Source: Isurus oxyrinchus (lineage: Eukaryota). From it: a DNA stretch of 64,000 bases. The notes under the pieces were generated by a model. It was not told the DNA's origin and did not search any database. It saw only the letters and a list, made by a program, of their open reading frames with translations. Both the position numbers and the translations under genes were made by a program. The DNA is taken from positions 37,882,001 to 37,946,000 of the forward strand of contig JANJGN010000026.1 of assembly GCA_026770705.1 (NCBI GenBank), read 5' to 3'. Every line of letters begins with the position of its first letter. Position 1 is the first letter of the stretch. This document shows, in pieces, positions 12,725 to 52,261 of this stretch.

Positions 12725-12763
12725 GGTTTTTGTACCGCTCTCTCGGTGCTCTTTATTACTGTG
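12725..12763 (-). other. 23-RSS #3 (distal) downstream of supporting V-delta
   Basis: Minus strand: CACAGTA (12763-12757), 23 nt, ACAAAAACC (12733-12725). Confidence 0.85.
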
Positions 12764-12785
12764 TGTCTGCAATCCCACCATGTTA

Positions 12786-12824
12786 AGTTTTTGTACAGCG
12801 CCCTCCGGATTCTGTATCACTGTG
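12786..12824 (-). other. 23-RSS #2 downstream of supporting V-delta
   Basis: Minus strand: CACAGTG (12824-12818), 23 nt, ACAAAAACT (12794-12786). Confidence 0.9.
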
Positions 12825-12835
12825 CACCATGTGCA

Positions 12836-12874
12836 GGTTTTTGTACGGCCCTCTCCCTGCTCTGTATCAATGTG
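12836..12874 (-). other. 23-RSS #1 abutting supporting V-delta
   Basis: Minus strand: CACATTG (12874-12868), 23 nt, ACAAAAACC (12844-12836). Confidence 0.9.
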
Positions 12875-13180
12875 CAGTGCGCCGACTCAGTGCACAATAA
12901 TACACAGCGGAGTCGCTCACTGGTAGTTTGGCGATATTTAACCGGCTAATTTTCTCGGCAGGTTCGATAGAAGCAGAAATTCTTCCCCCGGCAGCATTTT
13001 CCTTATTCTCCTCTCCTGAAGCGTGCCTCTGAAGCAGATATGCGGGAGCCTGTCCTGGGGACAGACGGTACCAGTGTACTGTGTACTGACAGATACCTGA
13101 ATATTCACAGCTTAAAGTAACGGTGTCACCTGCAGCAGAGGTTTGTAGAGGCTGATTCTGGGATATCAGGAGACTGGAAT
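12875..13180 (-). CDS. Leaderless NAR-TCR-supporting TCR-delta V segment
   Basis: V-set ORF (TVTLSC…HWYRLSPGQAP…DSAVYYCAL) with a non-canonical CDR1 Cys (YSGICQY). Phase-1 acceptor tttttcaccctccAG, 3' RSS, and no leader exon recognisable upstream. It lies downstream of NAR-type V(D)J exons. Confidence 0.88.
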
Positions 13181-15807: not shown

Positions 15808-16835
15808 CAAGGAAATGCAGGCTGTCACAACTTCATCTTTTCTCATAGGATAAACCATTTAACTCAGGAAGCTGCCTGACGAAACTTTGTTCGCTTCCTT
15901 CAAGGCATGTAGATGTTTTCTCAATTACGAATCTAAAACTTTACACAGCATCCACACTGGAGTCCAGTGCAGTCCTTCCCACACACAATACCTCTCCCAA
16001 TTGTTTTGTAATACCGAGGAGTACTGATTCATCAGCTGAGGTGATGGTTCGTGCATAGGTGGTAACCAGCAGGAGGTTTCCTTCCTATCATTGGGCTGAT
16101 GCCATAAGACGTCTTGCCATCTGGAGTTAATGTTGAGGGCTCCAAGGGCATCTCCCTGCTGCCTGTATATCACCATGCCGCCACTTCTAGGTCTATCATG
16201 CTGGTGGCCCAGGACATACACAGGGATAGTGATGGTGCTGGATAAGACATTGCCTCTAAGTTATGATTCCGTGAGATTGTTGCTTGACAAATATGTGGGA
16301 AAGCTCTCCCAGTTTTAGCACATACCCCAGATGTTAGTAAGGAAGACACTGCCAGATGGACAGGCCTAGGTTTGCCATTGTCACTTCCGGAGTCTAGGTC
16401 GATTGCAGGTGGTATGCGGGTGGTTTGATTCATGGTTTATCCTTTTTTGTAGACTTAGTAACCATTTGATTCAAATAAATGGCTTGCTCGGCCATCATTT
16501 CACAAAACACTGAAGGGTAAACCACAATTCTTTGTTCCTGAAGTCTTACGTAGGTTAGACTAGGTAAGAACAGCAAATTTCCTTCGATTAAATAGACTAG
16601 GGCGGCTCGCAACAATCGGCTACAGTTTCATGATTACCCTACTAAGAGCAGCTTTTAACTGCTGGTGCTTGAATTCCACCAGCTGCTGCAGTGGGGTTTG
16701 AACCAGGGTTAACACACAGAGGATTCACAGGACTTCTGGGTTATTAGTCTAATGACATTACCAGGAGGCCACCCTTCCCCATGGCGATTATTGGCCTGGA
16801 TACTTTGCAACACGTCACGGTTTGGAGTCACTTAC

Positions 16836-17180
16836 CAGCTGTGACAGTCACCTCTGTCCCGGAACCGTCTGCAGAACCATCTTTCCAAACGGAACCACAT
16901 CCATATTTATACTGAGCTTTACAGTAATAGGTGGCCGTGTCTTCAACTCTCAGATCCCGAATTTCCAGAGAAAAAATATTTTCTGCTTTATTCGTCGACA
17001 CAACAAATCTCCCCCCACTGGAGATCCGCTCCCTCTCAGTCCCAGTCTGGGTTTGTCTGAAGAAATGTCCGTCCTCTAAACGATGAGAATTACCATGGAA
17101 AAAGCAAGTGATGGTGAGGGACTGACACTCCTTCCTGGTCACCGCTGCCGCACTCTGTACCACTGACTGACTGAAAGAAC
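16836..17180 (-). CDS. Germline-joined NAR-TCR VDJ exon E (open, 345 nt, phase 1-1)
   Basis: SQSVVQSAAAVTRKECQSLTITC…GHFF…DTATYYCKAQYKYGCGSVWKDGSADGSGTEVTVTA. No RSS between V and J. Acceptor tttccAG, donor GTAAGT. Confidence 0.9.
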
Positions 17181-17328
17181 CTGGAAATTAACCACAGAGT
17201 GTTTAGTGGACTATCAAAGCCGAAACAAAAAACGGGAATAAAACCCCAGACAGTGTCTGCAATTGGGATGGATTCGGGCAGCTTTATATGAAATGTATAC
17301 AATGTCGGTTTGTTTGATCCGTACTCAG

Positions 17329-17371
17329 GGGGTAGAGAGGCACACAGAGTGAAAACAAGAAGGATTCCCAT
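17329..17371 (-). pseudogene. Leader exon of copy E with destroyed splice donor
   Basis: MGILLVFTLCASLP is followed by CTGAGT where the paralogs have GTGAGT. Read-through of the intron is out of frame with the V. Confidence 0.85.
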
Positions 17372-17908
17372 CGCTCTGCTGCCTAGAAAAGATGGTTACT
17401 TGATGCGAGCAGGAGATTGCAGCAATAAAAACAAGATGCTGGGGAAACACTGGAGTTCTGGCAGCATCTCTGGAGAGTGAAACCGGATTAAGGTTTCGAG
17501 TCCATATGACTCTTCTTCAGAGCTGCCAATGCCGGAAATTATTAAAACATCTCCCTGAACTGATTGTTGGAAACTCGTTTGACCGTTTGATTTAAGGGTG
17601 GTCGCTTTAGACCCGACCGCTTCCCTCCGTCCAGCAACTGAAGATCAGGTTGCAACATGAGACAGCCCAGTGACTTTGTTAACAATCAGGCAGAAGTGGA
17701 TACTAACAACAAAGCATGATCTCACCATATCTTTTAAACAAAGGCCTACTGCACTCCTTCCTCTGTGATTTGCCCTTGAAATTAAGTTACTAGGAAGTAG
17801 TGTTTGATTTCCAGGTCTGGCGAATTCAGAGTCTCGAGTTCCACTGATAGAACATGAAGCAACACTTGTGAAATCTGCTCATTATGTATAAACCGTCCTT
17901 GAACAATT

Positions 17909-18150
17909 ATCGACACAACAAATCTCCCTCTGCTGGAGATCCGCTCCCACTCAGTGCCGGCTTGGATTTGTCTAAAGAAATGTCCATCCTGTAAACTATA
18001 AGAATAACCATGGAAAACACAGGTGATGGTGAGAGGCTGACACTCCTTCCTGGTCACTGCTGCTGGGGCCTGTGTCACTGACTGACTTAATTAGTTTGTT
18101 TGTGTGAACCGTACTCACGAGGTAAACAGGCACAAAGGGAGGATTCCCAT
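17909..18150 (-). pseudogene. Truncated NAR-TCR V copy D
   Basis: The leader has an 11-nt deletion and the intron has collapsed to about 30 nt with the native acceptor removed. The V runs KECQPLTITC…RFVVS and then breaks into duplicated flank sequence, with no second Cys, CDR3 or J. Confidence 0.85.
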
Positions 18151-18204
18151 CGTCCTGCTGCCAGGATCTGATTGTTACATGACGCGAGCAGGAGATTGCA
18201 GCAA

Positions 18205-18440
18205 TAAAAACAGAAAATGCTGGAAAACTCAGCAGCTCTGGTAGTATCTGTGGAAAGAGAGACAGAGTTAATGTTTCAAGTTCGCCTGTCTCTTCTTCAG
18301 AGCTGCGAAGCAGAGTCATATTGGATTTGAAACGTTAACTCTGTTTCTCTCTCCACAGATTCTGCCAGGCCTGCTGACTTTTACCAGCATTTTCTGTTTT
18401 CATTTCAGATCTCCAGCATCCGCAGTATTTGGCTTTTATA
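18205..18440. mobile_element. Penelope-like terminal-repeat fragment pair in inverted orientation, inserted in the promoter of copy D
   Basis: 'aaaacagaaaatgctggaaaactcagcag…' is followed by its reverse complement. The same motif forms the end of the Penelope-like element at 38775. An orthologous insertion lies at about 22165-22660 and a remnant at 17425-17525. Confidence 0.7.
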
Positions 18441-20389
18441 TAGAGAATCACAGCTCTGGAGTACTTGAGGAGACTGGACCTCGGAGCTGGACTGAAATAC
18501 CTCAGGGAGTAGAGTTGCGTTGCAGAGGGCGGTGTCCCGTGGAGCATTGACGGGCCACACAGTTCCTGTCTCTCTGGTTGTTTGTTGTGTGAATAAGTGA
18601 CAGATTCAAAAAAGGAACCTGCAGTTTCATTTGGTTCATTAGGCCTATAAGCCTGAAGTGAAGCCCCCTCTCCCATTTGCCTGATGTACAGTGCAGGGCG
18701 GTGTGGGTGAAGGAAGGTAGGGTTGTTTCCATTAGTGAAACCGGCCGCCCACAGTAATGAACTGGCAGGCGCTTCCAAGTGTTTTTATAAGTGGTATATT
18801 CTGACAGTGGGATGTGGGAGAATCCCTCCTTCCCCAATACAATTCTCACTGTCATGAAAAACAGTAAACGCTGGAGAAACTCTGGAGTTCTGGCAGCATC
18901 TCTGGAGACTGGAACAGGGGTAACGTTTCGAGTTTGTATGACTCTTCTTCAGATCTGCCTGTGCTGGGAATTATTAAACATCTCCCTGAACTGACTGTTG
19001 GAAACTCATTTGACCTTTTGATCTAGGGTCGCCTTTGACCCGACAGCTTCCCTCCGTCCAGCAACTGAGGATGAGGTTGCAATATGAGACAGTCCAGTGA
19101 CTTTGCCAATATTCAGGCAGAAGTGGGTAATAACCACAAACAATAATCTTACCATATAATTTAAACAAAGGCCTAGTTCGTTCCTTCCTCTGTGATAGTG
19201 TTTGATTTCTAGGTCTGGTTAATTCAGAGTCTCCAGTTCCACTGATGGAACATGAAGCAACGCTCTGTGGGACAGTGAAATGCGGGTGGACACTGTGTTT
19301 GGGATTTATTTTAACGATCACAGTCACTACCTTTGTGAAATCTTGTCATTATGTATAAACCATCCCTGACCAATCAAGACATTCTTTTGAAAGAAACATT
19401 TGTGAACTGGCCACGGTCAAATGTTCTGGGAAACTGGGTGGGGAGAAAGACATGGGGCTGCTCAATAATCCAGGCAGGCATGGAAAGGGCCGAAAAGGGT
19501 TAAAAAAAGAAGTCTTCAGGACAACAGGGCTTCACGCCCACTGAGCATCCACAGCTCTCTGAGGTATAGAATGCTACTGGTTCACAACAACTTCTCTTCT
19601 CATTTCGCTTGGCCGACCCCTTATCATGAAAATGTGACCCCTAGTTATCGACTTCCCGGCCCGGGGAAACACGTACCCAGAATCTGCCCTGTCAGCCCCT
19701 TGAGAATATATGTTCTAATGAGGCCACCTCTCATTCCGCTAAACTGCATGGAACGTAGGCTTTGACCAGTTAATGTTTTGTCATAGGACAATCCCTTTAC
19801 CTTGGGAATCGTTATTATGAACCTTTCTTCACTTCCTTCAATGCATGTAGATCCGTTCTTAAGTATGAATCCAAAATAGCATCCAGACCTGAGGCCAGTG
19901 CAGTCCTTGCCGCACACAATACATGTTCCAATTGTTTTTAATACCGGGGAGTACTGATTCATCTGCTGAGGTAGCGATTGGGAGGTAGGTGGTAACCAGT
20001 AGGAGGGTTCCTTCCCATGTTTGGGCTGATGCCATGAGGCTTCATGGGATCTGGAGCCGTTGTTGAGGACTCCCAGGTGCAAGTCCCTGCTAATATGTCA
20101 CTGTGCCGCCACGTCTGGGTCTGTCCTGCCGGTGGCACAGGGCATGTACAGGGATAGTGATGGCCATGTCTAAGACATTGTCTGTCAGTTATGATTCCGT
20201 GAGTATGACTGTGTCAGGCTGTTGCTCGACAAACCTGTGGGAAAGCTCTCGCAATTTTGGCACAAATATTCAGATGTTAGTGAGAAGGACAATGCAGGGT
20301 GGACAGGCCTAGTTTGACATTATCATTTTCATAGCATAGGTCGATGGCAGGTGGTATGACGAGTGGTATACTCCAAGCTTAATTCCTTC

Positions 20390-21186
20390 TGTTATGACAC
20401 GGCATCTGCTAAAGGCTGAGTTATTTAAAATGCCAGAGGGAAATTTTAAACAACTTTCATAACCTATATTTTCAACTGGCATGTTTGAGAAGCAACTCTG
20501 AATTTAGAAATGAAACCATCAAACCTTCAGATGCCTTTAATATAAATTAAATTAAACATTTATTAATTTCATTAAGAAATTAAACACAAGTTACTACCAT
20601 AATAACTATTAAAGAAATCCCCTTATTCATCAATTCCATGTATTCTTCCCCAAGGAAACAATATCCCATAGACTTAAACAGATACCAGGCAAAGCACGTT
20701 TTTCCTAACGATTTCAAAATTAGGCTCCTTTCAAATGTTTCCTTGCCAGGCACAGTTGTAGGCTTACAGGCTGCTTAGATCATACATGCCTCTGACTTCC
20801 ACGTATGAAACTCTTCTGTATATACCTAGCCTTCCCTTTGAATGTAAATTCTCATTGGCTCAACAGACCCTTGGAACTCCGCCTCTTCTAACAATAAACC
20901 CGTTTCATAGTACCAATTTTATTAGTAATAAAAACATATTGATTGGTATTTCCTAATTTGACGCAAGGTTTCACTCCCAGTCTTTGAATGGTTTATTCAA
21001 TGAAATGCAAATGCACCCTCCACCTACTGATAAAATCTCAAAGCTACTATACATCAAAGCACACCGACTAGCTGGCTTTAATCCAATTAAGACAAAACAC
21101 AGTCACACCCATAGGCACAGATCCTAATTCAAGCCCAATTTAAAATTATTTCCAATAACATTTTATACCTTAATATGTTCATGACA
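20390..21186 (-). mobile_element. Solo-LTR-like element
   Basis: TGTTATGA…TCATGACA termini and a near-TSD cttc/attc. It interrupts sequence that is contiguous in the paralogous unit near 16430. Confidence 0.5.
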
Positions 21187-21574
21187 ATTCTTTTAAAATT
21201 TGATTCAAGTAACTGGATTGCTAGGCCATCATGTCACAGGGCATGTCAGAGGAAACCACATTGCTATGTGTCTGGGATCACACGTGGTGCAGACCAGGTA
21301 AGAATGGCAGATGACCTTCCTTTAAGGTCAATAGTGTGCTGAACAGTTTGGAAATATCGGCAACAGTTTTATGATCACCTTACTTTTTATTCCAGCTTTA
21401 ATTCATTGAACTTAAATTCCATCAGCTGCTGAGGTGGAATTTGAAGCAGGATTAACACACCGAGGATTGGCAGGGCCTCTGGCTACTAGTCCAATGATAT
21501 TACTGCTAGGCTACCCTTCCCTATTGCGAGCATTTATCTAGTTAGCAACACATCGCGGTTTTGGAGTCGCTTAC

Positions 21575-21919
21575 CAGCTGTGACAGTCACCTCTGTCCCG
21601 AATCCGTCTACATAACCATCTTTCCAAACGGAACCACATCCATATTTATACAGAGCTTTACAGTAATAGGTGGCCGTGTCTTCAACTCTCAGATCCCGAA
21701 TTTCCAGCGAAAAATTATTTACTGCTTTATTCATCGACACAGCAAATCTCCCTTCGTTGGAGATCCGCTCCCATTCAGTGCCTGTCTGGGTTTGTCCGAA
21801 GAAATGTCCATCCTGTAAATGATGATAATTACCATTGAAAACACAGGTGATGATGAGGGACTGACACTCCTTCCTGGTGACCACTGCCTGGGTCTGTGTC
21901 ACAGATTGACTGAAAGAGC
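21575..21919 (-). CDS. Germline-joined NAR-TCR VDJ exon C (open, 345 nt, phase 1-1)
   Basis: SQSVTQTQAVVTRKECQSLIITC…YYCKALYKYGCGSVWKDGYVDGFGTEVTVTA. Acceptor cttccAG, donor GTAAGC, no RSS. Confidence 0.9.
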
Positions 21920-22067
21920 CTGGAAGTTAAACAGAAAGAGTTTAATGGGCCATCAGAGCCAAAGTACAAAATGTGGCTCAAACCCCAGACAGTGTCTGTA
22001 ATTGGGATGGACTCCGGCAGCTTTAGGTAAAATGCACACAATGTTGGTTAGTTTGATTGGTAGCCAC

Positions 22068-22109
22068 AGGCTAAACAGGCAAACAGGACAAAACAAGCTA
22101 AGTTCCCAT
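22068..22109 (-). pseudogene. Leader exon of copy C, inactivated
   Basis: ATG GGA ACT TAG gives a stop at codon 4. The exon is 42 nt instead of 43 (frameshift) and the donor is weakened to GTGGCT. Confidence 0.85.
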
Positions 22110-22244
22110 TCTTCTGCTTCCTGGAGCTGATAGTTTGTATGACGGGGAGCAGGAGATTGCGGCAAGAAAAGCAGAAAGTGCTGGAAAAACTCAGCAAGAC
22201 TGGCAGCCTCTGTGGAGACCAACAGCGTTAACATTTCCAGTCGC

Positions 22245-22575
22245 TGTGGAGTGGTATTGTTTTTAGACTAGTAGCACAGGGACACAGAGCAATATTCTGG
22301 GTTCCCGGGTTCGAGTTTAGCCAAGGCAGATGGTGGAATTTTAATTGAATCAACATCTGGAATCAAAAGTCTAATGATGACCATAAAACCATTGTCGATT
22401 GTTGTAAAAACCCATCAGGTTAACTTATGCCTTTTAAGGAAGGAAATCTGCCAATCTTATCTGGTCTGGCCTACATATGACTCCAGACCCACAGCAATGT
22501 GGTTGTCTCTGAAATGCCCGGATAGGCAATAAATGCTGGCCTTGGCAGTAGCGCCCACATCCAAAGAATAAAATA
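22245..22575 (+). mobile_element. tRNA-derived SINE nested in the Penelope-like promoter insertion
   Basis: A-box-like tggagtggta and B-box-like ggttcgagt, a conserved body and an A-rich end. Confidence 0.7.
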
Positions 22576-23981
22576 AAAGGGTTTGCCAGAACTGCTGAGG
22601 TTTCTCCAGCATTTTCTGTTTTTATTTCAGATTTCTAGCATCCGCAGTATTTTGTTTTTATGTAGGAGACTGCAGCTCTGAACTGCTCAGGGAGACTGCA
22701 ACTCAGAGCTGGACTGAAATATTTTAGACTGTACAGTTCATTTGCCGAGGACTATGTCCTTCGGATGATTGATGAGCCGCCCCATTTCCATCTCTCTGGT
22801 TGTGTGTTGCCTGAATGAGTGACAGGTTTAAAAACGGAACCAGCAGTTTCATGTTGCTTCTTTGGGTCTGGAAGCCTGATGTGAAGTCCCCTCTCCCATT
22901 TGTCTGATGTACAGTTGCTGGCGGGATGGGGCGAGGGAGGTGGAATTGTTTTCGTTAGGAAAGTCTGCCTTCCTCATTTTACCACAATAATGAGATTGCA
23001 GGTGCGTCCATGTGCTTTTAATAAGAGGTATTTTTTGAAGGTGGGATGTGGGAGAATCTCTCTGTCTCCAATATTGTCCTAACTGTAATTAAAAGCAGGC
23101 GGAAACTGGAAAAACCCAGGATATCTGGCAGCACCGACCGTAGGGTGAAACAGAGTTAACGTTTCGAGTCCCTATGACACTTCTTCAGAGCTGCCTCTGC
23201 CGGAAATTGTTAAACATCTCCCTGAACTGGCTGGTGGGACTTCATTTGACCGCTTGATCAAAGGGAAGAAGCCTTACATCCGCCTTAGACAAGCAACTGA
23301 GTATCAAGTTGCAATATGAGGCAGTCCAGTGACTTCCCAATGTTCAGGCAGAAAGAATCAACTCTCCATATCATTTAAACAAAAGCTCGTTGCACTCCTT
23401 CCGTTGTGATTTGCATTTGAACTGATCTATCCAGTAAACTATGCTTGATTTCCAGGTCTGGATTACTTAGATCTTCCAGTTGCAATTATAGAACATGAAG
23501 CAACACTGAGAAGGGCAATAGAAATGCGGGAACACGGTTTTTCTTTTGGATTTTATTTAAAGATCACAGTCACTGCCTTATGAAAGCTATTCATTGTGGA
23601 TTAGTTGTCCCTGATCTAACAACACTGTTAAAATATAGCTCGTGAACAGTGCTGCGGCAAAATCCTGGAACTCCCTCCCTAACAGCACTGTGGGTGTACC
23701 TACACCACATGGACTGCAGCGGTTCCGGAAGGCAGCTCACCATCACCTTCTCAAGGGAAACTAAATGCTGGCCCAGCCAGCGAAGTCCACATCCCGTTAA
23801 TTTTAAAAAAAGCTATCTGCTCCAACATTTCCCCGTGGCAGTAAGTTTCAAATCCTGGCGTGCTTTTGTTTAAATTTATCTTACTTAATGCCTTTATTTT
23901 TTTTTTGTTAGTGAGGATCATACATTGACGGCCCATTCCTCTGGACTCGCCCACAAAATAAACTTTTGCTCCACATCCACC

Positions 23982-25940
23982 CATAAGACCATAAGACATA
24001 GGAGCAGAAATTAGGCCATTCGGCCCATCAAGTCTGCTCCGCCATTCAGTCATGGCTGACAAGTTTCTCAACCCCATTCTCCCGCCTTCTCCCCATAACA
24101 TTTGACCCCTTACCAATCAAGAACCTATCTATCTCGTTCTTAAATATACTCAATGACCTGCCTCCACAGCCTTCTGTGGCAATGAATTCCATCGATTCAC
24201 CACTCGTTGGCTAAAGAAGTTTCTCCTCATCTCTTGTTCTAAAAGGTCTTCCTTTTACTCTGACGCTCTGCCCTCGGGTCCTAGTCTCTCCTACTAATGG
24301 AAACATCTTCCCCATGCCCACTCTATCCAGGCCTTTCTGTATTCTGTAAGCTTCAATCAGATCCTCCCCTCATCCTTCTAAACGCCATCGAGTATAGACC
24401 CAGAGTCTTCAAACGTTCCTCATATGTTAATCCTTTCATTCTTGGGACCATTCTAATGAACCTCTTCTGGACCCTCTCCAGGCCCAGCACATCCTTCCTG
24501 AGATATGGGGCCCAGAATTGCTCACAATATTCTAAATGTGGTCTGACCAGAGTTTTATAAAGCCTCAGCAGCACATCCCTGCTTTTATATTCTCGTCCTC
24601 TCGAAATAAACGCCAACATTGTATTTGCCTTCGTAACTACCGACTCAACCTGCAAGTTAGCCTTAAGAGACTCCTGACTAGGACTCCCAAGTCCTTTTGC
24701 ACTCCAGATTTTTGGATTCTCTTCCCAATTAGAAAATAGTCTATGCCTCTATTCTTCCTACCAAAGTGCATGACCTCACACTTCCCCACGTTGTATTCCA
24801 TCTGCCACTTCTTTGCCCATTCTCCTAACCTGTCCAAATCCTTCTGCAGCCTCCCCGCCTCTTCAATACTACCTGTCCCGCTACTTAGCTTTGTATCATC
24901 TGCAAACTTTACCAGAATGCGCTCAGTTCCTTCATCTAGATCATTAATGTATAAAGTGAAATGTTGTGGTCCCAACCTGACCCCTGCAGAACTCCACTAG
25001 TCACCGGCTGCCATCCTGAGAAGGACCCCTTTATCCCCACTCTTTGCCTCCTGCCAGACAGCCAATCTTCTATCCATGCTAGTACCTTCCCTCTAACACC
25101 ATGGGCTCTTATCTTACTGAGCAGTCTCCTGTGCGGCATCTTGTCAAAGGCCTTCTGGAAGTCCAAGTAGATAAGATCCATTGGCTCTCCTTTGTCTAGC
25201 CTACTCGTTTCCTCCTCAAAGAATTCTAAGTGATTTGTCAGGCATGACCTCCCCTTGATGAAACCATGCTGACTTTGCCCTATTTTACCATGCACTTCCA
25301 AGTATTCTGAAATCTCATCCTTAATAATGGTCTCTAAAATCTTACCAACGACGGAGGTCAGGCAAATCGGCCTGTAATTTCCCGTCTTTTGCCTTACTCC
25401 TTCTTAACCAGGGGGGTTACATTAGCGACTTTCCAGTCCTCTGGGACCCTCCCTGACTCGAGCGATTCCTGAAAGATCATCACTAATGCCTCCACTATCT
25501 CTTCAGCTATCTCCTTCAGAACTCTGGGGTGTAATCTATCTGCTCAAGGTGATTTATCCACCTTCAGAGCTTTCAGTTTACCTTGCACCTTCGCCTTGGT
25601 AATGGCCACCATACTCATCTCTGCCCCCCGACTCTCTTGAACAAGGGGGGTGTTACTCATGTTTTCCACTGTGAAGACTGACGCAAAGTTCCTATTCAAT
25701 TCCTCCATCATTTATTTGTTCCCCACTACTACTTCTCGAATGTCGTTTTCCAGTGGCCCAATGTCCATTTTTGCCTCTTTCTTATCCTTTATATATCTGA
25801 AAAAAAAAACTCTTGCAATCTTCTTTTATATTACTGGCTAGTTTACCCTCATATTTAATCTTCTCCCTCCTTATTTCTTTTTTAGTTGCCCTCTGTTGGT
25901 CTTTGTAGGCTTCCCAATCCCTTGGTTTCCCACTGCTCAC
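23982..25940 (-). mobile_element. CR1-clade LINE, relatively young, 5'-truncated
   Basis: QHGFIKGRSCLTNHLEFFEE, IYLDFQKAFDK, KFADDTKL, LYKTLVRPHLEYC and a (cataagac)n tail. Frameshifted. Confidence 0.92.
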
Positions 25941-27306
25941 CCAGTGAACACATTCATTATTTAGAAGATTTCTCTGAATTCTCCTCATGTTTCTCTGTTT
26001 TCCAGAGAAAAGAAACCAAGTCTGTTCAGCCTTTCCAGACAGATGTCGATTGTTGTTCATTTACTTTCTAAAAAGTGAAAGAAATCAAAGAAGGTAACAT
26101 AAGAAATAGGAGCTGCTGCCACCTTTCAAATCTGCTCCTCTATTCAAAAATATAGTGGCTGATCTCCGTCCTCAATATCACATTCCCGCACTGTCCCCAT
26201 ATCCCTTGATTCTTTCAGAGTCCAAATATCTATGAACACTGCCTTGAATACACTCACTATTGAGTATCCACAGCTCTCTCATGTATAGCACGTTACGGAT
26301 TCACAACAATATTTTGACGGAAGACAACTCTCCTCTTCTCAGTTCTAATGGCCGACCCCATATTCTAAACTCTGACACCTGGAGAAACACCAACTCCACA
26401 AGCTGCCCTGTTAGGCCCCTTAAGAATACTTCATGTTCCAATGATATCAGCTGTTATTCCTTCAAGCTCGAGGGAATCTATGCTTTGACTACGTAACTTC
26501 TCCTCATAGGACAATCCGTTTGTCTCTGGAATCAGTATGATGAACGTTGTTCACTTCCTCCAAAGCACGTAGATTTTTTCTGAAGAATGAGCCCCCAAGT
26601 TTACACAGCATTCCAGACTGGAGCCCATTGTAGTCATTGCCACACTCAATGCTCCCTCCAATTAATGTTCAATACGAAGGAAAACTGATTCATCAGCTGG
26701 TGGGTCGGTGGTAATCAGCTGGAGGTTTCCTTACCCATGTTTGACTAGATGCCATGAGACCTCATGGTGTCTGGCGTCGATATTGAGGACTCCCAGGGGC
26801 AACACCCTGCTGAGTGTATATCACTGTGCAGCTACCTCTGGGACTGTCCTGCTGGTGGCACAGGACATACACAGGAACAGTGATGGTGGTGCCTAAGACA
26901 TTGTCAAAAGGCTATGATTCTCTGAGCATGACTCTTGTCAGTGTGTTGCCAGTGACTAGGCCATCATTTCAGGGAGCATTTAAGAGTAAACCACATTGCC
27001 TTGTGTCTGGAGTCGCATGTGGGTTAGACGAGGTTCAAATGGAATGTTTCCATCACTGAAAGACATTCGTGAATCAGATAGCTTCCAGCAATGATTTCAT
27101 GATCACTAGTTTAAATTCCAGTTGTTTATATTATTTGATTTTTAATTCCACCAGTTGCTGTTGGTGGGATTTGAACCCGATTTCCCAGCTCATTTGCCTT
27201 GCCCTCTGGATTACGAGTCCAATGACTTTACAACTAGACTGTCCCCTCCCCGATGTGAACATTAACCTGGATACTCTGTAACACATGGCGGTTTGGTGTC
27301 ACTTAC

Positions 27307-27654
27307 CGTCAGTGACAGTCAACACCGTCCCTGATCCGTCTCCATAAACATCTTTCGAAACGGTGCTCCCACATCTATATCTGTACTGAGCTTTACAGTA
27401 ATAGGTGGCTGTGTCTTCAACTCTCAAATCTCGAATTTCCAGCGAAAATGTCTTTTCTGCTTCATTCATCGACACAACAAATCTCCTTCCGCTGGAGATC
27501 CGCTCCCGCTCTGTCCCAGTCTGGGTTTGTTTGAAGAAATGCCCGTTCACTAAACTATGAGAATTACCAGATAAAACACAGGTGATAGTGAGCGACTGAC
27601 ACTCCTTCCTGGTCACCGCTGCCGGGGTCTGTGTCACTGACTGACTGAAAGAGC
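27307..27654 (-). CDS. Germline-joined NAR-TCR VDJ exon B (open, 348 nt, phase 1-1)
   Basis: SQSVTQTPAAVTRKECQSLTITC…YYCKAQYRYRCGSTVSKDVYGDGSGTVLTVTD. Acceptor tttccAG, donor GTAAGT, no RSS. Confidence 0.9.
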
Positions 27655-27802: not shown

Positions 27803-27845
27803 GGGGTAAACAGACACAGAGGGTGAAAACAAGGAGGATTCCCTT
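27803..27845 (-). pseudogene. Leader exon of copy B lacking its start codon
   Basis: ATG is changed to AAG at 27845-27843 (KGILLVFTLCVCLP). No in-frame ATG lies in the open stretch upstream; the ORF-track start at 27911 is GTG. Confidence 0.85.
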
Positions 27846-30800
27846 CGTTCTTCTGACTGGAGCTGAGGGCTTATATGACGGGAAGCTGGAGACTGCAGCC
27901 CTGGACAGCACTGGGAGACAGGACCTCAGAGCTGGACTGAAATACTTTAGGAGCTAGAGGGGGGTGCAGACGGGGGTGTCCCGCGGAGCATTGACGGGCC
28001 ACACGGTTCCCATCTCTCTGGGTGTGTGTTATGTGATTAAGTGACAGGTTTAAAAACGGAACTTGCAGATTCATGTTGCTTCATTGGGCCTGTAAGCCTG
28101 ATGCGGAGTCCCCTCTCCCATTTGTCTGATGCACAGTGCCCTGCGTAATGGGGCAAGGGAGGTGGAGTTGTTTCCTTAGTGAAGTCTACCGCCCTCATTC
28201 TCCCACAGTAATGAGCTGGCATGTCTGTCCATGTGTGTTTGGCAAATGGTATTTTATGAGAACGGGATGTGGGAGAATCCCTCCTTCTCCAATATTATTC
28301 TAACTGTCATGAAAAAACAGAAAATGCTGGAAAGAGCTCGTCAAGTCTGGCAGCATCTGTGAAGAGTGAAACAGAATTAACGTTTCAAGTTGTATGACTC
28401 TTCTTCAGAGCTACCTGTGCCGGAAATTATTAAACATCTCCCTGAACTTGCTGTTCGGTCTTCAGTTGAAAGTCTGTCCCAAGGGAAGGAGCCTTACACC
28501 CGCCTTAGTCCAGCAGCTGAGGACCAGATTACAATGTGAGACAGTCCAGTGACTTTGCCAATATTCAGGCGGAAGTACAGAAATACCACAAAGAATAAAC
28601 TCTCCACTTCATACAAACAAGTGCTTGCTGCAACCTTCCCCTGTGATTTGCATGTAAAATGATGCTGCCAGAAAGTAATGTTTGATTTCCAGGTCTGGAC
28701 TATTCAGTTTCCAGTTGCAGTGTTAAAACATGAAGCCTCTCTCAGAGGCACAGTTGAAATGGGGGCGGACACTGTGTTTGGGGCTTGTTTAAAGTATCAC
28801 ACTCACTACCTTGGTGAGATCTGTTAGCTGTGTTTAAACTGTCCAGAATCTAACAACACGTTCTATTGAAGTGAACCTTGTGAACCGGCCGCGGTCAAAT
28901 GCTCCTGGAAACTGACGGGTACAAGGACATGGAGCTGCTCAGTAATCCAGGCAGGCATGCAAAGGGCAGAAAAGGGCCAATAAACTCCTTCAGGAGCAGA
29001 GGACCTCACACTATTTTGGTCGACTGTTCATCACACAAACATGGCCGATCGTACGTCACTCAAAAGTGGTCGATTGTTCAAACGACCTTTGAGTAGCTCC
29101 GGATGGTCTGTCGCTGATCCCCAATGTGCAATCAAAGACATAAACATCATCTGTTTCGTCAAAAACTAAAATAAAAACCTGAAAAAGCCTTTTTGCTTGA
29201 TCCACAAGTTTTGCACATGAAATATTGTCCAATTTCCTTCTGATTTTGAATGCTACTGGCGTGAAACAGCGCAGAACAGCACATGACGTAAACATGTTTT
29301 GCCTCAGAGCTACCACAAATACAACTTGTATTTTAAAGCACATTTAATACAATGAAAGGTCCCTTCAGCAGGTAATGACAGTGATCTTCGTAAAACATGA
29401 ATCCTGAGAGGCGGATGTGGCCGATCACCCGAGTCACCGTCTGCAATGTGGGACCGCGGATACATTTTGGCATCATAATTACCAACACTCAGATTGTAGC
29501 AGTTTAATTTTAAGAGACTACGATTATTTAAAAGCAACCGGAAGGAGAAATATTATCTGAATGTTTTTCAATCAGCATTTGTTTGGAAGAAAAACATAAT
29601 TTATTCTATCAATAGGTTTAATTATTCCCCAATGCCATTTATTTTGATATATTTACATTTACTTTCACTTTGTTTCTCAATTTCCTTTGTGCAGTTTGCG
29701 CTTCTTGCATGGGAACGTAGTAATCGTGGGAACTTGCCCCAAGGTTTCTCATTTGTCCGTTGGGTTCAGTCTGTTCAGTTTCCGCAGTAGTTTTACTGTT
29801 ACTCACTGGGAACTGCGTCTTCTCCCTCTCTGACGATTTCAATTTTTTTCCGTCCATTTACTGGTTGAAGTTACCTGGATGTTTTACTTTACACAGTATC
29901 TGCCAGAGGAGGAATAATCCATACCGTTCAAATGATTTATGCCTTTGCATTTACTGGGGACCAGTCCCCATTCTCCTGAAATCTAATTGACAATTTCCAG
30001 TCAGCTCCCTCTGTCAGTCTGTTCTGTTCTCCTTCCTGTATTTTCAAGTCTTCCCATAAATGTATCAATACCATCTGCTCCAACCATTCCCTGCGGCAGC
30101 AGGTTCCACACTCTGACCTGCCTGTTTTTACACTTCTTCTTAATGTCATTATTTGTTCTGTGAGTGACTGTCTTATTCTAATGGCTCTAGGCTCACCCAC
30201 AAATAAGCAGCTATTCCACAAATACCTCAAATGAACCCGTTCGTTATTTAAACAACTTCCATGAATTCTCCTCCTCTTTCCATGTTCTCCAGAGACAAGA
30301 GGCTCAGCCTGTTCAACCTCTCCAACGAGATGCAGATTCTCCCTGATTTCTTTTCTCAGATGTGTAACAGATCAAAGCAGTTAATGTAACAAACAGAAGC
30401 AGGAGCAGCCATATCACCTTTCAAACCTTTTCCACCATTCATAATATCCTGACTCATCTCCTAGCTCAACATCACTTTGCCGCAATGTCCCCATATCCCT
30501 TGATTCTTTTAGCATCCAGAAATCCATTGAACACTTCATTTAAAACATCCAACTACTGGGCATTCACAGCTCTCTGAGGAAGAGAATGTCAGAGATTCAC
30601 AACAATGGCTTCACTGAAGAAATTTCTCTTCGTCAAATTTCTCATGGTCGAGTTCTTATTCTGAAACTGTGACCCCTAGTTATAGGCTTCTCAGCCTGGG
30701 GAGACACCCACCGGGAATCTATCGTGCCCTGGATGTTAGATTTCTAATGAAATTGCATCTCATTCATCTAAGCTCCAGGGAACATAGGCTCAGACAACTC

Positions 30801-31827
30801 AATCTCTTCTTTACGACAATCCCTTTATCTCAGGGATCAGCCTGATGAACGTTTGCTGCACGCCCTCCAAGGCATGTAGATCCTTCCTTAAGTAAGGAGA
30901 CCAAAACTTTACACAGCATTTCAGTCTGGAGCCCATTTCAGTCCTTCCGTCCATAAACCTCACCCACCCGCACTGGGCTCGGATTGTACTTTGACTGGGC
31001 CAGAGATCCACCAATCCTTCTCCCGCTTTCGATGAATTATTTATTGCTGCTTCTAAATGAACATTCCCCCAATTTACAACTTAGAATTGTTTCCTTATGT
31101 TCCTGTTCTCCTTTATAAGATTAATGCATCATCCTCTCTGTCTCACTGCACTGTGTTGTTTCAATTCACAGTAATCAGGGATACAGATACATTTCAGCAA
31201 TCCCATCTCTCAAACATCTACATTCAATATAGAGAAGCGGCTGCAGTTCCAAACTTACACATTTCAGTCTGAGGGCGGAAAAGTAGGAAAGTGTTTAGTT
31301 ACATGAAAGAAATGGCGGGGACAATGTCGTTAATTTCAGTTACTGACTGCCCAATAATAAAATTCCATCTGGGCCCACATCAGGATTTCTTATATCTGAA
31401 GTCCGTTGTTTCTCTCTCCCGCTTTTCTCCCGGGTCAGGTATGGAACGAGCCGCTGCAGGTACCCGAACTGGCCGCAGTTGTGTTGAGTTTATTGACCCG
31501 GTACCTCATTCCGCGGCTCGGACTGCAATCTGCTGCCCAGGAGAGAGCTCTGTGACCCCGCTCCCGGGCTCTAAGGGACAGACAGAGGTCCGTCGGTCAC
31601 AGTTAACACCGGGAGTGGAGTCCGGATTGTCGACAATCTGCGCTCATTAAAAGCGATTCAGAGTGTGAGAGTCCGTGATGTTGATGTTGTCCCCGATGTG
31701 CCCATTAAACTAATAATGATTCTGTCAACTCCCACATCCCACCCAAACTCCACTGATATCAATAATAAACTGATGGTGAACGTTACCCGGGACAGGCTAT
31801 AACCCGGCGGTGTTTGGAACTACTTAC

Positions 31828-32280: not shown

Positions 32281-32673
32281 CACAGTGTTACAAGTCAGCA
32301 TAAAATCCCCCGGGCACTTGGTAAGATTTGGGGACATTAGTTAAACAGCGGGGACTGCGGTTCCCGGTTCCAGTTGTTAGACCAGGATCACATCTGGCGT
32401 TAGGGATTTCTAACTGGGATCAGTCATTCCCAATTCCCATTCACTGACACCAATCCCAGGAAAGGCATCACCATCCGCACACACTGGGCATTTATAAAAC
32501 TCAAGATGTTAACAGCAATAATCCAATCTCATTATAAACTAGACTGTGGGGCAGACGGTGTGAGGCGGAACTGTGGGGGTTTAACTGCAGATTAACTCTG
32601 CTTTTTCATTTGTTTCTGTGATAATCGGCAGTGAGAGTTTTTGTATCGCGGGAAGCCGAGACCCATCACTGTG

Positions 32674-32957
32674 TGTCGTACTGTAATGAGCTTTACAGTA
32701 ATAGGTGGCGGTGTCTTCAACTCTCATGTCCCGAATTTCCAGCGAAAATGTCTTTTGTGCTTTATTCACCGACACAACAAATCTCCCCCCGCTGGAGATC
32801 CGCTCCCACTCAGTCCCGGTCCGGGTATTTTTGAAGAAATGTCCCGTTTGGAATTCATGCCACGAAGCACCGGAGAAAACACAGGTGATGGTGAGAGACT
32901 GACACTCCTTCCTGGTCACCGCTGCCGGGGTCTGTACCACTGACTGACTGAAAGAGC
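32674..32957 (-). CDS. NAR-TCR V segment A (unrearranged, intact)
   Basis: VNAR-like V lacking a conventional CDR2, with an extra FR1 Cys (RKECQ), ending YYCKAHYSTT. RSS: CACAGTG (32673-32667), 22 nt, ACAAAAACT (32644-32636). Acceptor tttccAG. Confidence 0.93.
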
Positions 32958-33104: not shown

Positions 33105-33147
33105 GGGGTAAACAGACACAGAGGGTGAAAATAAGAAGGATTCCCAT
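33105..33147 (-). CDS. Leader exon of NAR-TCR V segment A (the only intact leader in the cassette)
   Basis: ATG, MGILLIFTLCVCLP, 43 nt, donor GTGAGT, 147-nt intron, in frame with the V exon. A TATAAA lies at 33177-33172. Confidence 0.9.
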
Positions 33148-45229: not shown

Positions 45230-46830
45230 CTGTTCATATTAAACTTGACCTTTGACTGTATATATTACACTCAGTGATGTCTCTGATCGTATTACAACAG
45301 GTTGTGTCTCAGTTGTTTCTATAATAGGTCAATCTCAGTCAATATACAGGACAAAGACCATGTTACACTATACATTTTCTCAGTTATCACTGCACTAAAC
45401 CATGTCTAGTCTAATATGACAATAGTCCATGTCTCAGTTGGTACTGCACTGGTACTTGTCTCTACTTAGACGAAACCAGAACATCTCCCTGTTTACATGA
45501 CACGAGGCTCTGTCTCAGTTATTGCACTACTAGACTTTGCCATGTTTATACTAAACTAAGAGATGTCTTGGCGAACGCTGCGCCAGTCTATTTCTCTGTT
45601 TATATCACACGATGCCCTGTCATTGTTATTATTGCATAATACCGTGCCTCTTTCTTATTGCTGCACTTGCCCACATCTCTGTTTATATTAATCCAGGTCC
45701 TATGTTGGTAGTTATTGCACTAGGCGCTGCCTCAGTTTATATTAGACAAGGTCCTATATCAGATGAAACTGCAACAGATCCCGTGTCAATTTCCTTTCAC
45801 TAGATCCTGCCCCAGTCATTACTGAACTAGACCATGTCGGTGTTCATATTACACAAGACACTGTCTCAATTATTACTGCACTCGGCACTGCCTCACATTT
45901 TACTCCACTACATCATGCCTCTGTTTATATTACACTAGATCACCTTTTTACTCATATTCTGTTAGACCCTATCTCAGTTTATATAACACTCGACCCTGTC
46001 TCAGTTTATATTACAGTAGACCCCATCTCAGATAATATTATACTGGAGCCCGTCTCGGTTTATATTACACCAGAGCACATCTGTGTTTACATTACAATAG
46101 ACCCTCTCTCCGTTTTTATTACACTAGACCCTGTCTCAGGTAATATTACACTAGACATTTCCTCTGTTTATATTGAAATCGGCCCTATCAATGTTATTTC
46201 TGTGTAGGTCATGTCTCTGTTTATACTACACAAGGCCAAGTCTGTTATCACTGCACTAAATCCTGGCTCAATAATTGCTGATACTAGGCCCAGCCTTCGT
46301 TTGAATGACCGTGGATGCTGTATCAATAATTGGTGCACTCGGCCCTGTCTCAGCATTACGGCACCAGACCCTGACTTTGTTTATATTGAAATGGATTATG
46401 TCTATGATAATATTACATCAGTTCCTGCCTCAGTTATTTCAGTGCTCGGCCCCGTCTCAGCTGCTCCTGAATTCGGCCGTGGCTCTGGTTGTATTGCATG
46501 CGGAAAAGTCTCAGTTATTACTGCTCTGGGCCCAGCGTCTGTATATACAACGCTAAACCCTGTCTTAGTAGCTGCTGCACTAATCCAATCATCTCTTCCC
46601 TGTCCCTGTTTCTATTCCACTAGATCATGTTTTTGTTTATCTTACACTATAGGCAATCTGAGTTATTATTGCACCAGACCCTGTCGAGGGTGTTATTAAT
46701 CCATGTGCCGAATCCATCATTACTGTTCTAGCCACGAGAGAGGATTAGTATCAATTGACCCAGTGCTTAGTGCGCTAACCCTGCCTCGGTTATTTCTACG
46801 CTTGGCCATGTCTCTGTGATTCCTGCAACT
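45230..46830 (-). repeat. Degenerate 27/54-bp satellite, reverse orientation
   Basis: Units such as actagaccctgtctcagtttatattac, the reverse complement of the 55-64 kb unit. Confidence 0.8.
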
Positions 46831-47287
46831 GTGAGTTGGAGAGAAATTATTATACACAAAGATGTTGAGGTGGGGATTGTTCCCTGGCGTTGGCCTCAAA
46901 CGGGCGGTATTGGATGGCCCGTTCTTTGCAGCACCTGATAGTTATTTTCATTAAGTTTTAGTCAAAGAAATGATAGATCAGATATGGTCAGTTATGTGTG
47001 CTGTATAGAAAAAAAAACATACTTCTTGCTTAGACCGCCGTTTCTCAAAGATAAATGATGATCTTTACCCGAATGTTTCAATATTTAATTTTCTCTTACT
47101 CAAACTGTCACTGCGGATTATTTAGTGCTGTAAATATTTATTGATAGCATGTTTCGTTGTTTACTTTTGCTTAGAAAGTGATGTCATACTAACACTTCCG
47201 TCACTAAGACGAGCATGTTTATCACCAAACTCATTGAATGTCCTTTGTTTCTCTGTCCGAGGCAGCGTCTAACTCAGTGAACCTCTA

Positions 47288-47397
47288 CTCTCTCTCTCTC
47301 TCGCTCAACCTTTCTTTCTCTCTCTCTCACTCTCTCTCTCTACCCACCATCTAACTCCCGCCCCCCACACCCCCGCTCTCTCTCTCTCTCTCTCTCT
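47288..47397. repeat. (CT)n microsatellite
   Basis: Directly visible. Confidence 0.9.
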
Positions 47398-48049
47398 GAG
47401 ACAGTCCCTTATTCATTTTGAATCTCCTGATATCTAATAACACTCTTTGGAGAATTTTTTTTTTCACAATTTCTCTTCATTTCTCCCAGTGACAACTTTC
47501 AGTCCACTCTTGCCTTCAGTGATTGTGTTCAAATCCAAAACTATGCATTTAGTTAAATTGTAGATTGTTTAATACTGTAAGTATTTAGTGATAACCAGTC
47601 TGTTGTGTGCATTTGTTTATAAAGTGATCCCAGACTAACAATTTCGTTTCTAAGGTGCTTTATCTGTCTCCGCTGATCAATTGGAAAACGGAGTAAATCA
47701 CATCCAGAAGAACCAGCAGTTTATTAACAAATGATCACCTCAGTATCTCTCAGAAGCTCCTGGTAATCTCGAATGTGTGATGATTTGTGCAAGTGATGGC
47801 AAAAATCAAACTTTACCTACACCTCACATGAGACTCATACACCTGTAATTCTCCGGTTTATTTTTCCTGTTGATGGGAAGGAGTGAAACTCCTGCTGCTC
47901 TCCAGAGACTTTCAGAATTTCTGCTTCCACTTTTTTTAACTGCTTTCTTCACAAATTCCACCACAACCACTCGAATCATGTTTGGACGGATTAGTTTAAG
48001 TGCAGGTTGCATATTCAATGTAATCTTAACGAAAATAAACCATGGCCTA

Positions 48050-48960
48050 GTCGAGTATAAAAAGAGATCGAACTTGATGTAACATAAACAGAGATATGGG
48101 TTACTGCATTAATAACAGAGACAGTATCTGGTTTAACATAAAAGGAGATATCGACTAATGAATTAATAACAGAGACAAGACCTGGTGTTATATAACCAAG
48201 GATATGGGCTCGTGCAGTAATATCAGAGACAGGACCTGGTGTAATATAAACATAGGTATCGGCTAGTGTAAGTAATAACAGGCACAATACCTAGTATAGC
48301 ACAGGCAGAGGCATGTGCTAGTGCGGTGATAACACAAATTGACCCAAGGAGTCAAATAAACAGATAAATTGGCTAGTTCAGGAATCAGAGAGAGGGAGAA
48401 CTTGGTATAACATTGAATGAACCGATATTTGTATGATCATAATAACAAAAACACTTTGTATAAAATAACAACTGAAAGAGGTCATGGCGAAACACTAGCG
48501 GAAACAGGGTCAACGTTAACAATATCAGGATCAGGTTACTATTGAAAACTGATTGGCACAAGGTTTTCAGAAATAATGAGAGAGGTTTGCATTAGGATTG
48601 AATGACATGTAGGCTCTTCGGGCAACCATTACAGAGACAGCGTTTTATACAATGAGATTGGATATAGAGAACAGATTAAAAGCGGTAAAGCTGTGTAATT
48701 AGTGCAATGTTTGATGATAACAGAGGATAGCAGTGAATCACTGAATACATCACTGGATCCAGTGTGATAATGATACAGTCAGCACCTGATCCACCCAAAT
48801 CGAAGTTGGGTCTGATATAATAGTTTGTGTGAGACAGCGCCAATTGATACAATAGCAAATCTTTTGCCTAATGCCTAATAACAGAGTCAAGCACGACTGC
48901 AATATGAATGGGATGGAGTTGGTGCAATAACACTGACACAGTCTAGTGTAATAGCAAATA
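48050..48960 (+). repeat. Degenerate 27/54-bp satellite, forward orientation
   Basis: Units such as gtgtaatataaacataggtatcggcta and gtgcagtaatatcagagacaggacctg. Confidence 0.7.
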
Positions 48961-51178: not shown

Positions 51179-51299
51179 CAGATGTTCTCACCAGATTGTG
51201 GCCCCTGGATTTATTTTCTGCTCAGAAGTGAGATGTGCGGTTAGGAACCGGCAGCAGAGAAACAGGAAGTTGTGTTTCCTGAGAATGAAACAGCAGGTG
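51179..51299. promoter_or_regulatory. Candidate lymphoid enhancer (RUNX/ETS/STAT/E-box cluster)
   Basis: CAGATG 51179, TGCGGTT 51236, CAGGAAGT 51263, TTCCTGAGAA 51276 and CAGGTG 51294, all within about 120 bp of non-repetitive sequence. Confidence 0.4.
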
Positions 51300-52128: not shown

Positions 52129-52261
52129 NNNNNNNNNNNNNNNNNNNNNNNNNNNNNNNNNNNNNNNNNNNNNNNNNNNNNNNNNNNNNNNNNNNNNNNN
52201 NNNNNNNNNNNNNNNNNNNNNNNNNNNNNNNNNNNNNNNNNNNNNNNNNNNNNNNNNNNNN
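52129..52261. other. Assembly gap (133 N)
   Basis: N run following a (CA)-rich tract. Confidence 1.

Follow-up and report, generated by a model that had tools for sequence, protein, structure and literature searches.

How does a T-cell receptor locus come to hold V-CDR3-J exons that are already joined in the germline, and what could such exons be used for if they cannot start a protein? The window, i.e. the whole stretch of 64,000 nucleotides analysed here, contains on its minus strand an unrearranged NAR-TCR V-D-J cluster (unit A), followed by three in-frame V-CDR3-J exons without recombination signal sequences (RSS; exons B, C and E) and by a leaderless Vdelta (Table 1). To call RSS, we used their well-known heptamer and nonamer consensus. 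We found no RSS at the junctions of B, C and E, whereas unit A carries them at its V, on both sides of its D and at its J. The V end, a D-like core and the J start can be discerned at the joins and both RSS pairs are cleanly gone; the divergence is too great for P or N bases to be called. The lengths of the three exons are divisible by three and they contain no stops. The limits, junction peptides and retained introns (leader intron and J-downstream intron in B, C and E) given in a preliminary description were all recovered, as was a repeat insertion 3' of J that is common to the three exons, missing in A, and contains LINE-endonuclease-like fragments. That description compared the junction of C to the J of unit A; the J segments YKDDY(V/A)DG of two other clusters (L031 and L040) are a better match. 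It also treated the joined units as genes and missed that all three leaders are non-functional. Thus, no joined exon in the window can start a protein, which points to a use as internal exons.

Table 1. Features of the window, in the order of the minus strand.
Feature	Position	Strand	Description
Unit A leader exon	33105..33147	-	Intact, MGILLIFTLCVCLP, GT donor
Unit A NAR-TCR V, unrearranged	32636..32957	-	V exon 32957-32674; RSS 32673-32636, 22-nt spacer
Unit A D segment	32236..32308	-	D 32280-32264, flanked on both sides by 12-spacer RSS
Unit A J segment	31828..31920	-	J 31880-31828; RSS with 24-nt spacer; GT donor
Unit A J intron	29601..31780	-	Homologue of ordinary J-Vdelta intron
B leader	27803..27845	-	Start codon lost, ATG>AAG
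Germline-joined V-D-J exon B	27307..27654	-	348 nt, B-type, YRYRCGSTVSKDVYGDGSG, open, AG acceptor and GT donor intact
B post-J insert, repeat-derived	26500..27240	-	LINE-endonuclease-like fragment 26638-26745
C leader	22068..22109	-	Codon 4 is a stop, plus 1-nt deletion; repeat insertion just upstream
Germline-joined V-D-J exon C	21575..21919	-	345 nt, E-type, YKYGCGSVWKDGYVDGFG, open, AG acceptor and GT donor intact
Fragment D	17908..18150	-	Leader/intron deleted; NAR V truncated 3'; acceptor, junction and J all absent
E leader	17329..17371	-	Donor lost, GT>CT
Germline-joined V-D-J exon E	16836..17180	-	345 nt, E-type, YKYGCGSVWKDGSADGSG, open, AG acceptor and GT donor intact
E post-J insert, repeat-derived	15974..16770	-	LINE-endonuclease-like fragment 15974-16084
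Supporting TCR Vdelta	12725..13180	-	Exon 13180-12875, AG acceptor, three tandem 23-spacer RSS (12874, 12824, 12763)

The identity of the locus as NAR-TCR, as proposed earlier, is supported. The cited parts of the literature describe the shark NAR-TCR as a doubly rearranging TCRdelta (Criscitiello 2006, via PMC1845163, PMC12227049, PMC6795676) whose V is marked by a Cys in the a-b loop and by the lack of the WYRK Trp (PMC1845163). The V of unit A has this Cys and lacks this Trp; the motif RKECQS with the a-b loop Cys is found in A, B, C and E, and WY is replaced by GHFF. Most of the best PDB matches of exon E are VNARs (top E-value 5.6e-19), as for an IgNAR-like V domain. The supporting Vdelta downstream has a Cys in its CDR1 (GICQY), and no leader was seen for it. 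A TCR C exon lies in the same orientation at 29.90 Mb of contig C26 and is probably delta, judging from a database model. Between the J of unit A and exon B there is no supporting Vdelta; the J intron of unit A is broken off about 0.7 kb before the position where Vdelta is expected, which marks the region of a duplication breakpoint.

The fixed joined exons are recognisable by YKYGCGSVWKDG or YRYRCGSTVSKD, and the assembly holds 28 junction copies (27 by pattern match and one further). Seventeen of these are spread across 13.5 Mb of contig C26, so that they are not the local tandem copies that had been assumed. The copies are paralogous, and some of the unplaced contigs resemble haplotype duplicates, so that these counts are not independent; of 151 V matches, about 90 were assessed as loci, and scores were computed for only 150 of 721 candidates. 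Among 63 database proteins, four carry the same junctions, in five domains: P0001, P0002 and P0004 of Carcharodon carcharias and P0005 of Cetorhinus maximus. Together with the copies in the assembly, this shows that the joins are germline. The white shark gene models include both junction types and those of the basking shark only the B-type; the B/E split predates the split from the white shark. A protein search at near length returned three plain V fragments, and five runs of unrecorded kind (four samples of a relative, organism A) contain 19% of the words of exon E. CDR3 such as AVSLWW or AVLLWW in database models were dropped as joins, as they result from gene prediction through RSS spacers. 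In Heterodontus, P0003 has two identical V-J domains. Several separate germline V-D joins are present elsewhere in the locus.

To trace the origin of the joined exons, we compared J segments, flanks and V regions (2 of 91 loci were unparsed; 17 of 89 without a parsed J were left out of the analysis of J plus flank). With J plus flank, 20 joined rows group in a single clade (100/99) and have eight derived sites before the insert in common. The post-J insert is present in 8/8 joined introns (B, C and E and 5/5 other joined arrays tested) and in 0/8 other introns (that of A and the J-Vdelta introns of 7/7 other clusters tested). Going by these shared J substitutions and the insert, the joined exons descend from one ancestral cluster. 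Of the earlier proposal of one RAG event followed by tandem duplication, the single cluster lineage thus stands, while the single join is likely rather than proven. The V-region trees contain two well-supported clades, whose union appears in 34% of bootstrap trees (AU p 0.49). This leaves room for a different origin, in which an unjoined, insert-bearing cluster was duplicated and the two sister copies were then joined independently, one giving the B-type and the other the E-type. The two junctions differ by 3 nt. Two joins of the same segments in sister duplicates could have produced such similarity (P 0.13-0.54), which is improbable if the joins were made in different clusters (P 0.008-0.04). 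However, among 45 distinct flanks we found no unjoined cluster with the insert; moreover, GATGTGG is common to both types but present in 0/31 parsed D segments, and the frame of the Cys is identical as well. Only the B-type was found in the basking shark, as expected if E derives from B. We therefore doubt that there were two joins, and the sequences make a single joining event for both types quite probable.

How the exons are used can be approached through the contrast between their leaders and their reading frames. Genome-wide, the leader is dead in 21/24 full-length joined copies compared to 7/47 unjoined and 2/18 V-D-joined clusters, and on C26 alone in 13/14 joined compared to 3/31 unjoined. 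Among the 24 full-length joined copies, which come from a protein search biased toward intact exons, the exon is open in 19, acceptor and donor are both kept in all, and none combines a live leader with a dead exon. The loss of signal peptides together with the retention of reading frames suggests that the exons likely act as spacers, fixed domains that lengthen the receptor chain. One B-type lineage (L002-L004) retains an intact leader, and the B-type models of white (P0004) and basking shark (P0005) come with a leader and a Vdelta of their own, which makes stand-alone use possible for these. An audit of TATA boxes was rejected as a discriminator (4/24 joined and 38/47 unjoined, but also 4/18 V-D-joined) as it does not separate the classes.

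The order of the arrays agrees with an internal position. All 11 intact copies on C26, in 7 arrays, have a cluster with open leader and open V at the head and an open Vdelta at the end, and each stands behind a rearranging cluster that has no Vdelta of its own. Of the three stop-bearing copies on C26, two lie behind a frameshifted V (near-identical duplicates) and one beside a truncated Vdelta, with no V found upstream of it. At the head of three arrays is a V-D-joined cluster whose RSS nonamer is degenerate; this cluster may not rearrange.

Spliced contigs provide further hints. In the RNA-labelled run X1 of organism A, two contigs reach the J donor and continue into the supporting Vdelta, and one of them spans the junction. 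In another contig (125 nt, depth 4.7, in a run whose RNA nature is only a guess), a joined-type J is connected to the start of a NAR V that lies exactly 345 nt further back; this joint may be a tandem splice or a back-spliced circle. No contig shows splicing from a rearranged upstream J to a joined exon, and none covers the whole chain. A second J-to-V contig, in run X8, is best read as a circle, as both of its sides match L031; its 64-letter gap was considered as a B-type junction and, with both flanks fitting L031, not taken as support. Runs X7, X8 and X11 (organism B) contain no contig across the joined junction, which weighs neither way. Run X10 is probably DNA, and a loose end in X11 resembles a J-RSS spacer without an exact genomic match.

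Taken together, we favour the reading that pre-joined NAR-TCR V-D-J exons with lost leaders likely serve as invariant internal domains between a rearranging NAR V and the supporting Vdelta. A NAR V-D-J unit was duplicated within the J-Vdelta intron that belonged to it, so that the upstream copy no longer had a Vdelta. The downstream copy was joined in frame, with all RSS lost and both introns kept; the likely agent is RAG, acting in a germ cell of a mackerel shark ancestor. This copy gained the post-J insert and gave rise, through tandem and segmental duplication, to the B- and E-types. Their leaders were lost by at least four different routes, with exon frame and splice sites staying intact. 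The X1 contigs show in part that the joined exon is spliced to the supporting Vdelta, and a rearranged upstream J may splice into the joined exon (all exon junctions are phase 1) to give NARV(rearranged)-NARV(fixed)x1-3-Vdelta-C. More speculatively, the invariant CDR3 Cys might replace the CDR1 Cys of Vdelta and form a bond with the a-b loop Cys in the domain on top of it; conservation of the CDR3 Cys by itself has no significance at this tree length. The full picture, to which we give even weight, is a TCRdelta with an extendable stalk, in which a somatically rearranged NAR V would rest on one to three disulfide-stacked fixed NAR V, followed by a rearranged Vdelta and by C. Such chains would have four to six Ig domains, and germ-cell recombination would have taken place at least six separate times in the locus.

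An upstream leader, or the exon's own where intact, might instead be spliced straight onto the joined exon, giving a three-domain NAR-TCR with a fixed tip. Such a default receptor would resemble the germline-joined shark Igs that give early-life receptors and accounts equally well for dead leaders with kept exons. A V that is not rearranged lacks a donor and might be skipped, the RSS of some head clusters are weak, the splice from joined exon to Vdelta is observed, and leaders exist in the lineage and models named above. However, it leaves unexplained the kept arrays of three exons and the J-to-V joint between joined-type ends, no contig could be assigned to a leader-to-joined-exon splice, and the lower dN/dS of the joined exons (0.48 compared to 0.80 in 21 unjoined V) is odd for an antigen-binding tip. 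We thus consider this use unlikely.

Decaying pseudogenes, in which chance or gene conversion by functional V genes keeps the exons open, are less likely still. Birth and death is normal for such loci, every leader in the window is dead, and 9/28 copies are broken once three 5'-deleted copies and a frameshifted one are included (3-4 events). Against decay, stops and splice-site losses on a 12-copy tree fall far below the neutral expectation (1-2 seen for 9.2 expected, P 0.005, and 0 for 3.1), whereas leaders decay at the neutral rate (at least 4 primary lesions for 4.7). The joined V exons also keep to their own clades, their junctions are conserved across three species, and spliced contigs were found. 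A somatic lymphocyte rearrangement, an assembly artefact or a retrotransposed cDNA is extremely improbable, as the earlier description had argued for the first and last, given the 28 diverged copies, the identical junctions in two other species, which we take as already refuting, and the presence of both flanking introns and upstream sequence.

The proposed internal domains can be compared to known systems, as far as the cited parts of the sources describe them. With the shark NAR-TCR, the locus shares the NAR-type V, the V-D-J cluster and the leaderless supporting Vdelta with a CDR1 Cys. However, the NAR-TCR as described there has three domains with both V somatically rearranging, whereas in the present locus one to three pre-joined NAR V with dead leaders are inserted in between; in the window, only A has a typical leader, and the joined exons undergo no somatic assembly (no RSS, junction fixed across species). 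Similar in arrangement is Vmuj of marsupial TCRmu, described as a germline-joined invariant V behind a rearranging V-D-J, with a structural role, that arose by duplication of a V-D-J set of which one copy was joined (PMC7615758, PMC3457774, PMC2275272); here, the likeness is in genomic order, in seven intact arrays. Vmuj is VH-like, lacks the leader intron (retrotransposition is favoured) and sits directly on C, whereas the shark exon is of the NAR type with both introns retained, can be present in up to three copies and has a Vdelta downstream that still rearranges. The two are convergent and not orthologous. In cartilaginous fish, Ig genes joined in the germline (Lee 2000, PMC2193156) show RAG-like joining in germ cells, as is likely here, as well as clustering and fixation, but are described as complete with leaders, whereas the exons here belong to a TCR locus and mostly lack a working leader. 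In channel catfish (PMC6170632), joined TCR V(D)J with a leader intron were reported from germline DNA; that report is PCR-based, with diverse CDR3, conventional alpha/beta V and a proposed transposition, whereas the shark family is assembled, in situ, cross-species and of a single junction. Our literature search, which covered few subscription journals, returned no report of germline-joined NAR-TCR.

Pre-joined spacer V exons in a shark TCR would likely extend a design so far described for marsupials. Vmuj has been given two hypothetical origins, one of them direct germ-cell recombination (PMC2275272), and the shark locus is an in-situ, cross-species example of this route. The repeated V-D and V-D-J joins form a dated record of germ-line recombinase activity at a TCR locus. 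Should the exons be spacers, T-cell recognition would gain receptor length as a variable, and a variable tip on a pre-joined support would have been reached twice, in sharks and in marsupials.

The joined V-CDR3-J exons B, C and E are open, have AG and GT ends and are all in phase 1, and no RSS was found at any of the three. By protein search, 24 full-length joined copies were recovered, 14 of them on contig C26, which carries the window. Patterns of the two junction classes (B-type, as in B; E-type, as in C and E) matched 7 B-type and 20 E-type sequences in the assembly (three 5'-deleted), which is a census and not a test, as the patterns derive from known copies. One further B-type copy, on contig C242, is frameshifted. 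Among 63 longer database proteins, the family junction occurs in four, three white shark models and one basking shark model, and is absent from all hits of other orders. The white shark models show both junction types, the basking shark model is B-type, and in white shark model P0001 a tandem pair of E-type domains precedes Vdelta. The copies across the assembly and the junctions in both sharks exclude a somatic or assembly artefact, which bears out the preliminary description's case against a lymphocyte origin. Its argument against retroposition holds as well, since introns and upstream sequence are kept at the joined units. A model from Heterodontus francisci (P0003) has two tandem NAR V-J domains with a common CDR3; it could represent a separately arisen joined family, or else an artefact of gene prediction.

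The segment calls in the window (table below) use the heptamer/nonamer RSS consensus. Two to four tandem RSS were also present in 13 of the 16 supporting Vdelta (leaderless TCR V exons downstream) examined.

Features of the NAR-TCR locus in the window
Feature	Position	Strand
Unit A, unrearranged: NAR-type V with 22-spacer RSS, D between two 12-spacer RSS, J with RSS	33147-31828	minus
Joined V-CDR3-J exon B	27654-27307	minus
Joined V-CDR3-J exon C	21919-21575	minus
Truncated V fragment	18150-17908	minus
Joined V-CDR3-J exon E	17180-16836	minus
TCR Vdelta exon with three tandem RSS	13180-12875	minus
The three tandem 23-spacer RSS of that Vdelta exon	12725-12874	
Diverged 54-nt (2x27) tandem satellite: most of 56954-64000, smaller patches at 45954, 48078 and 55409	45954-64000	

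The a-b loop Cys is present and the WYRK Trp absent in all four V (A, B, C and E); the window Vdelta is leaderless, with a Cys in CDR1. The retrieved part of PMC1845163 gives these as marks of NAR-TCR V and of its supporting Vdelta, respectively; judged by sequence, the window exons carry both sets. Compared with solved structures, exon E matches mostly VNAR domains best. The closest named proteins, from Carcharodon (87–89%) and Cetorhinus (81%), point to a mackerel shark as the source. On C26 the window sits at 37.9 Mb. Scoring of 150 of the 721 candidates gave at least 140 NAR-TCR-type V matches in the assembly (4.98 Gb). At 29.9 Mb, C26 also carries a TCR constant exon, oriented like the window cluster and by inference delta. 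Two diverged constant exons of one type, L111 (C242:616924) and L112 (C26:29902121), have flanks 84–92% alike, which suggests a duplicated delta-type C. A dense repeated array on C242 (L071-L086, 370–550 kb) has functional NAR V-Vdelta pairs in alternation with V that are partial or have a dead leader, some of them V-D-joined.

The preliminary description proposed a single joining event followed by duplication. A tree of 84 distinct rows over leader intron and V recovers B-type and E-type as two strongly supported clades; their union appears in 34% of bootstrap trees (AU p 0.49) and is thus neither established nor rejected. In a tree of J and 3' flank (65 rows; part of the repeat-derived insert behind J included; 17 of 89 loci without a parsed J), the 20 joined rows all group in a single clade (100/99). 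Eight derived sites common to the joined rows are located before the insert. The insert, with LINE-endonuclease-like fragments, is present in every joined intron tested and in none of eight others, which extends to the family the earlier observation of post-J insertions common to B, C and E and missing in A. Aligned with a 3-nt gap, the junction cores of B-type and E-type agree at 15 of 19 bases, a similarity matched by 1–4% of simulated independent joins from different clusters and 13–54% from the same cluster; GATGTGG occurs in none of 31 parsed D segments. The J clade and the insert thus give good support to descent from one cluster lineage, whereas the single join behind both types is, given the V tree, only likely.

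The leaders of B, C and E are all dead, which was overlooked at first. Of the 89 parsed loci, 24 are joined, 47 unjoined and 18 V-D-joined, and the leader is dead in 21, 7 and 2 of them, respectively; one B-type lineage retains an intact leader. At least four separate primary lesions (ATG>AAG, codon-4 stop, GT>CT, ATG>ATA) in the 45-nt leader target are close to the neutral expectation of 4.7. The joined exons are open in 19 of 24 copies and keep both splice sites in all 24. Where 9.2 stop events would be expected, they have one or two (P 0.005), and where 3.1 splice-site hits would be expected, none, counted across copies that are not independent (paralogues and probable haplotype contigs). 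With deleted and frameshifted copies included, there are three to four exon-killing events, and 9 of 28 copies are dead. dN/dS is 0.48 for joined V compared to 0.80 for unjoined V.

In every array examined, the J intron of the head (the upstream cluster opening the array) tracks the ordinary J-Vdelta intron up to a point where it is broken off or deleted into the joined unit; Vdelta comes behind the last joined exon and nowhere earlier. On C26, the 11 intact copies are spread over seven arrays in which head V and Vdelta are both open, and the three stop-bearing copies lie in arrays whose head V is frameshifted or whose Vdelta is truncated. Three heads, which are V-D-joined and have a degenerate nonamer, may be unable to rearrange.

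We consider the following course the most likely, with moderate confidence. A V-D-J unit would have been duplicated within the J-Vdelta intron and its downstream copy joined in a germ cell, presumably by RAG, to which the clean loss of the RSS and the retrieved part of PMC2193156 point. The leader, no longer needed, would then have been lost, as in the supporting Vdelta, and the joined exon would serve as an invariant internal domain in chains of four to six Ig domains. An invariant CDR3 Cys is present in all 24 copies and in five of five domains of other species; that it pairs with the a-b loop Cys in the overlying domain is speculation, as its conservation alone is not significant.

Some evidence on splicing comes from sequencing runs of relatives. 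In X1 (organism A), which we guess to be RNA, two contigs run from the J donor straight into supporting-Vdelta sequence, one of them spanning the fixed junction with 17 differences in 191 nt. In a third, a J of the joined type (3 differences over 40 nt, compared to 6–12 for unjoined J) is followed by the start of a NAR V that lies back by exactly one exon length. This contig matches the tandem-splice prediction and the order in P0001, a model that may share the reads, and may also be a back-splice: in X8, both sides of a J-to-V contig fit cluster L031, and a circle is its best reading. Record 14 of X8, whose best fit is L031, is a probable circular RNA of a NAR V-D-J exon (351 nt) that would have been rearranged somatically. 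An unspliced NAR leader-intron piece (window 17165-17372) that diverges 14 nt into V occurs in X7, X8 and X11, from two studies; its source was not among the loci fetched. In X11 record 8, a NAR V end continues into sequence resembling the J-RSS spacer of the L060 family, for which no exact genomic match was found. No contig was seen in which a head's rearranged J is spliced into a joined exon. That a borrowed leader makes the joined exon part of an invariant three-domain receptor is rather unlikely. Decay of the joined exons, which the dead copies might suggest, is very improbable in view of the few stops and the intact splice sites.

Germline V-D joins occur separately in NAR-TCR clusters of different V clades (L025-L030, L032, L033, L035, L066, L067; L054; L055/L056; L060/L061; L084/L086; L093-L096), with the V RSS and 5' D RSS gone and the 3' D RSS and J kept. 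They represent at least five joins, probably six. In the L055/L056 join, the end of V and the start of D overlap by 4 nt, and two V-D-joined families have counterparts among the models of white shark (P0009) and basking shark (P0012).

Use of the joined exons as invariant internal domains would resemble marsupial TCRmu, where a rearranging V is supported by a pre-joined invariant Vmuj (PMC7615758 and PMC3457774, in the parts retrieved); the joined exons themselves fall outside that family. The retrieved parts of PMC12227049, PMC5931798 and PMC6795676 give NAR-TCR only as three-domain and doubly rearranging, and the literature searched, whose scope excluded two primary NAR-TCR papers, held no report of joined NAR-TCR. 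The joined NAR-TCR exons are real, and direct germline recombination, which the retrieved part of PMC2275272 draws as one hypothetical route to Vmuj, is seen at this locus.
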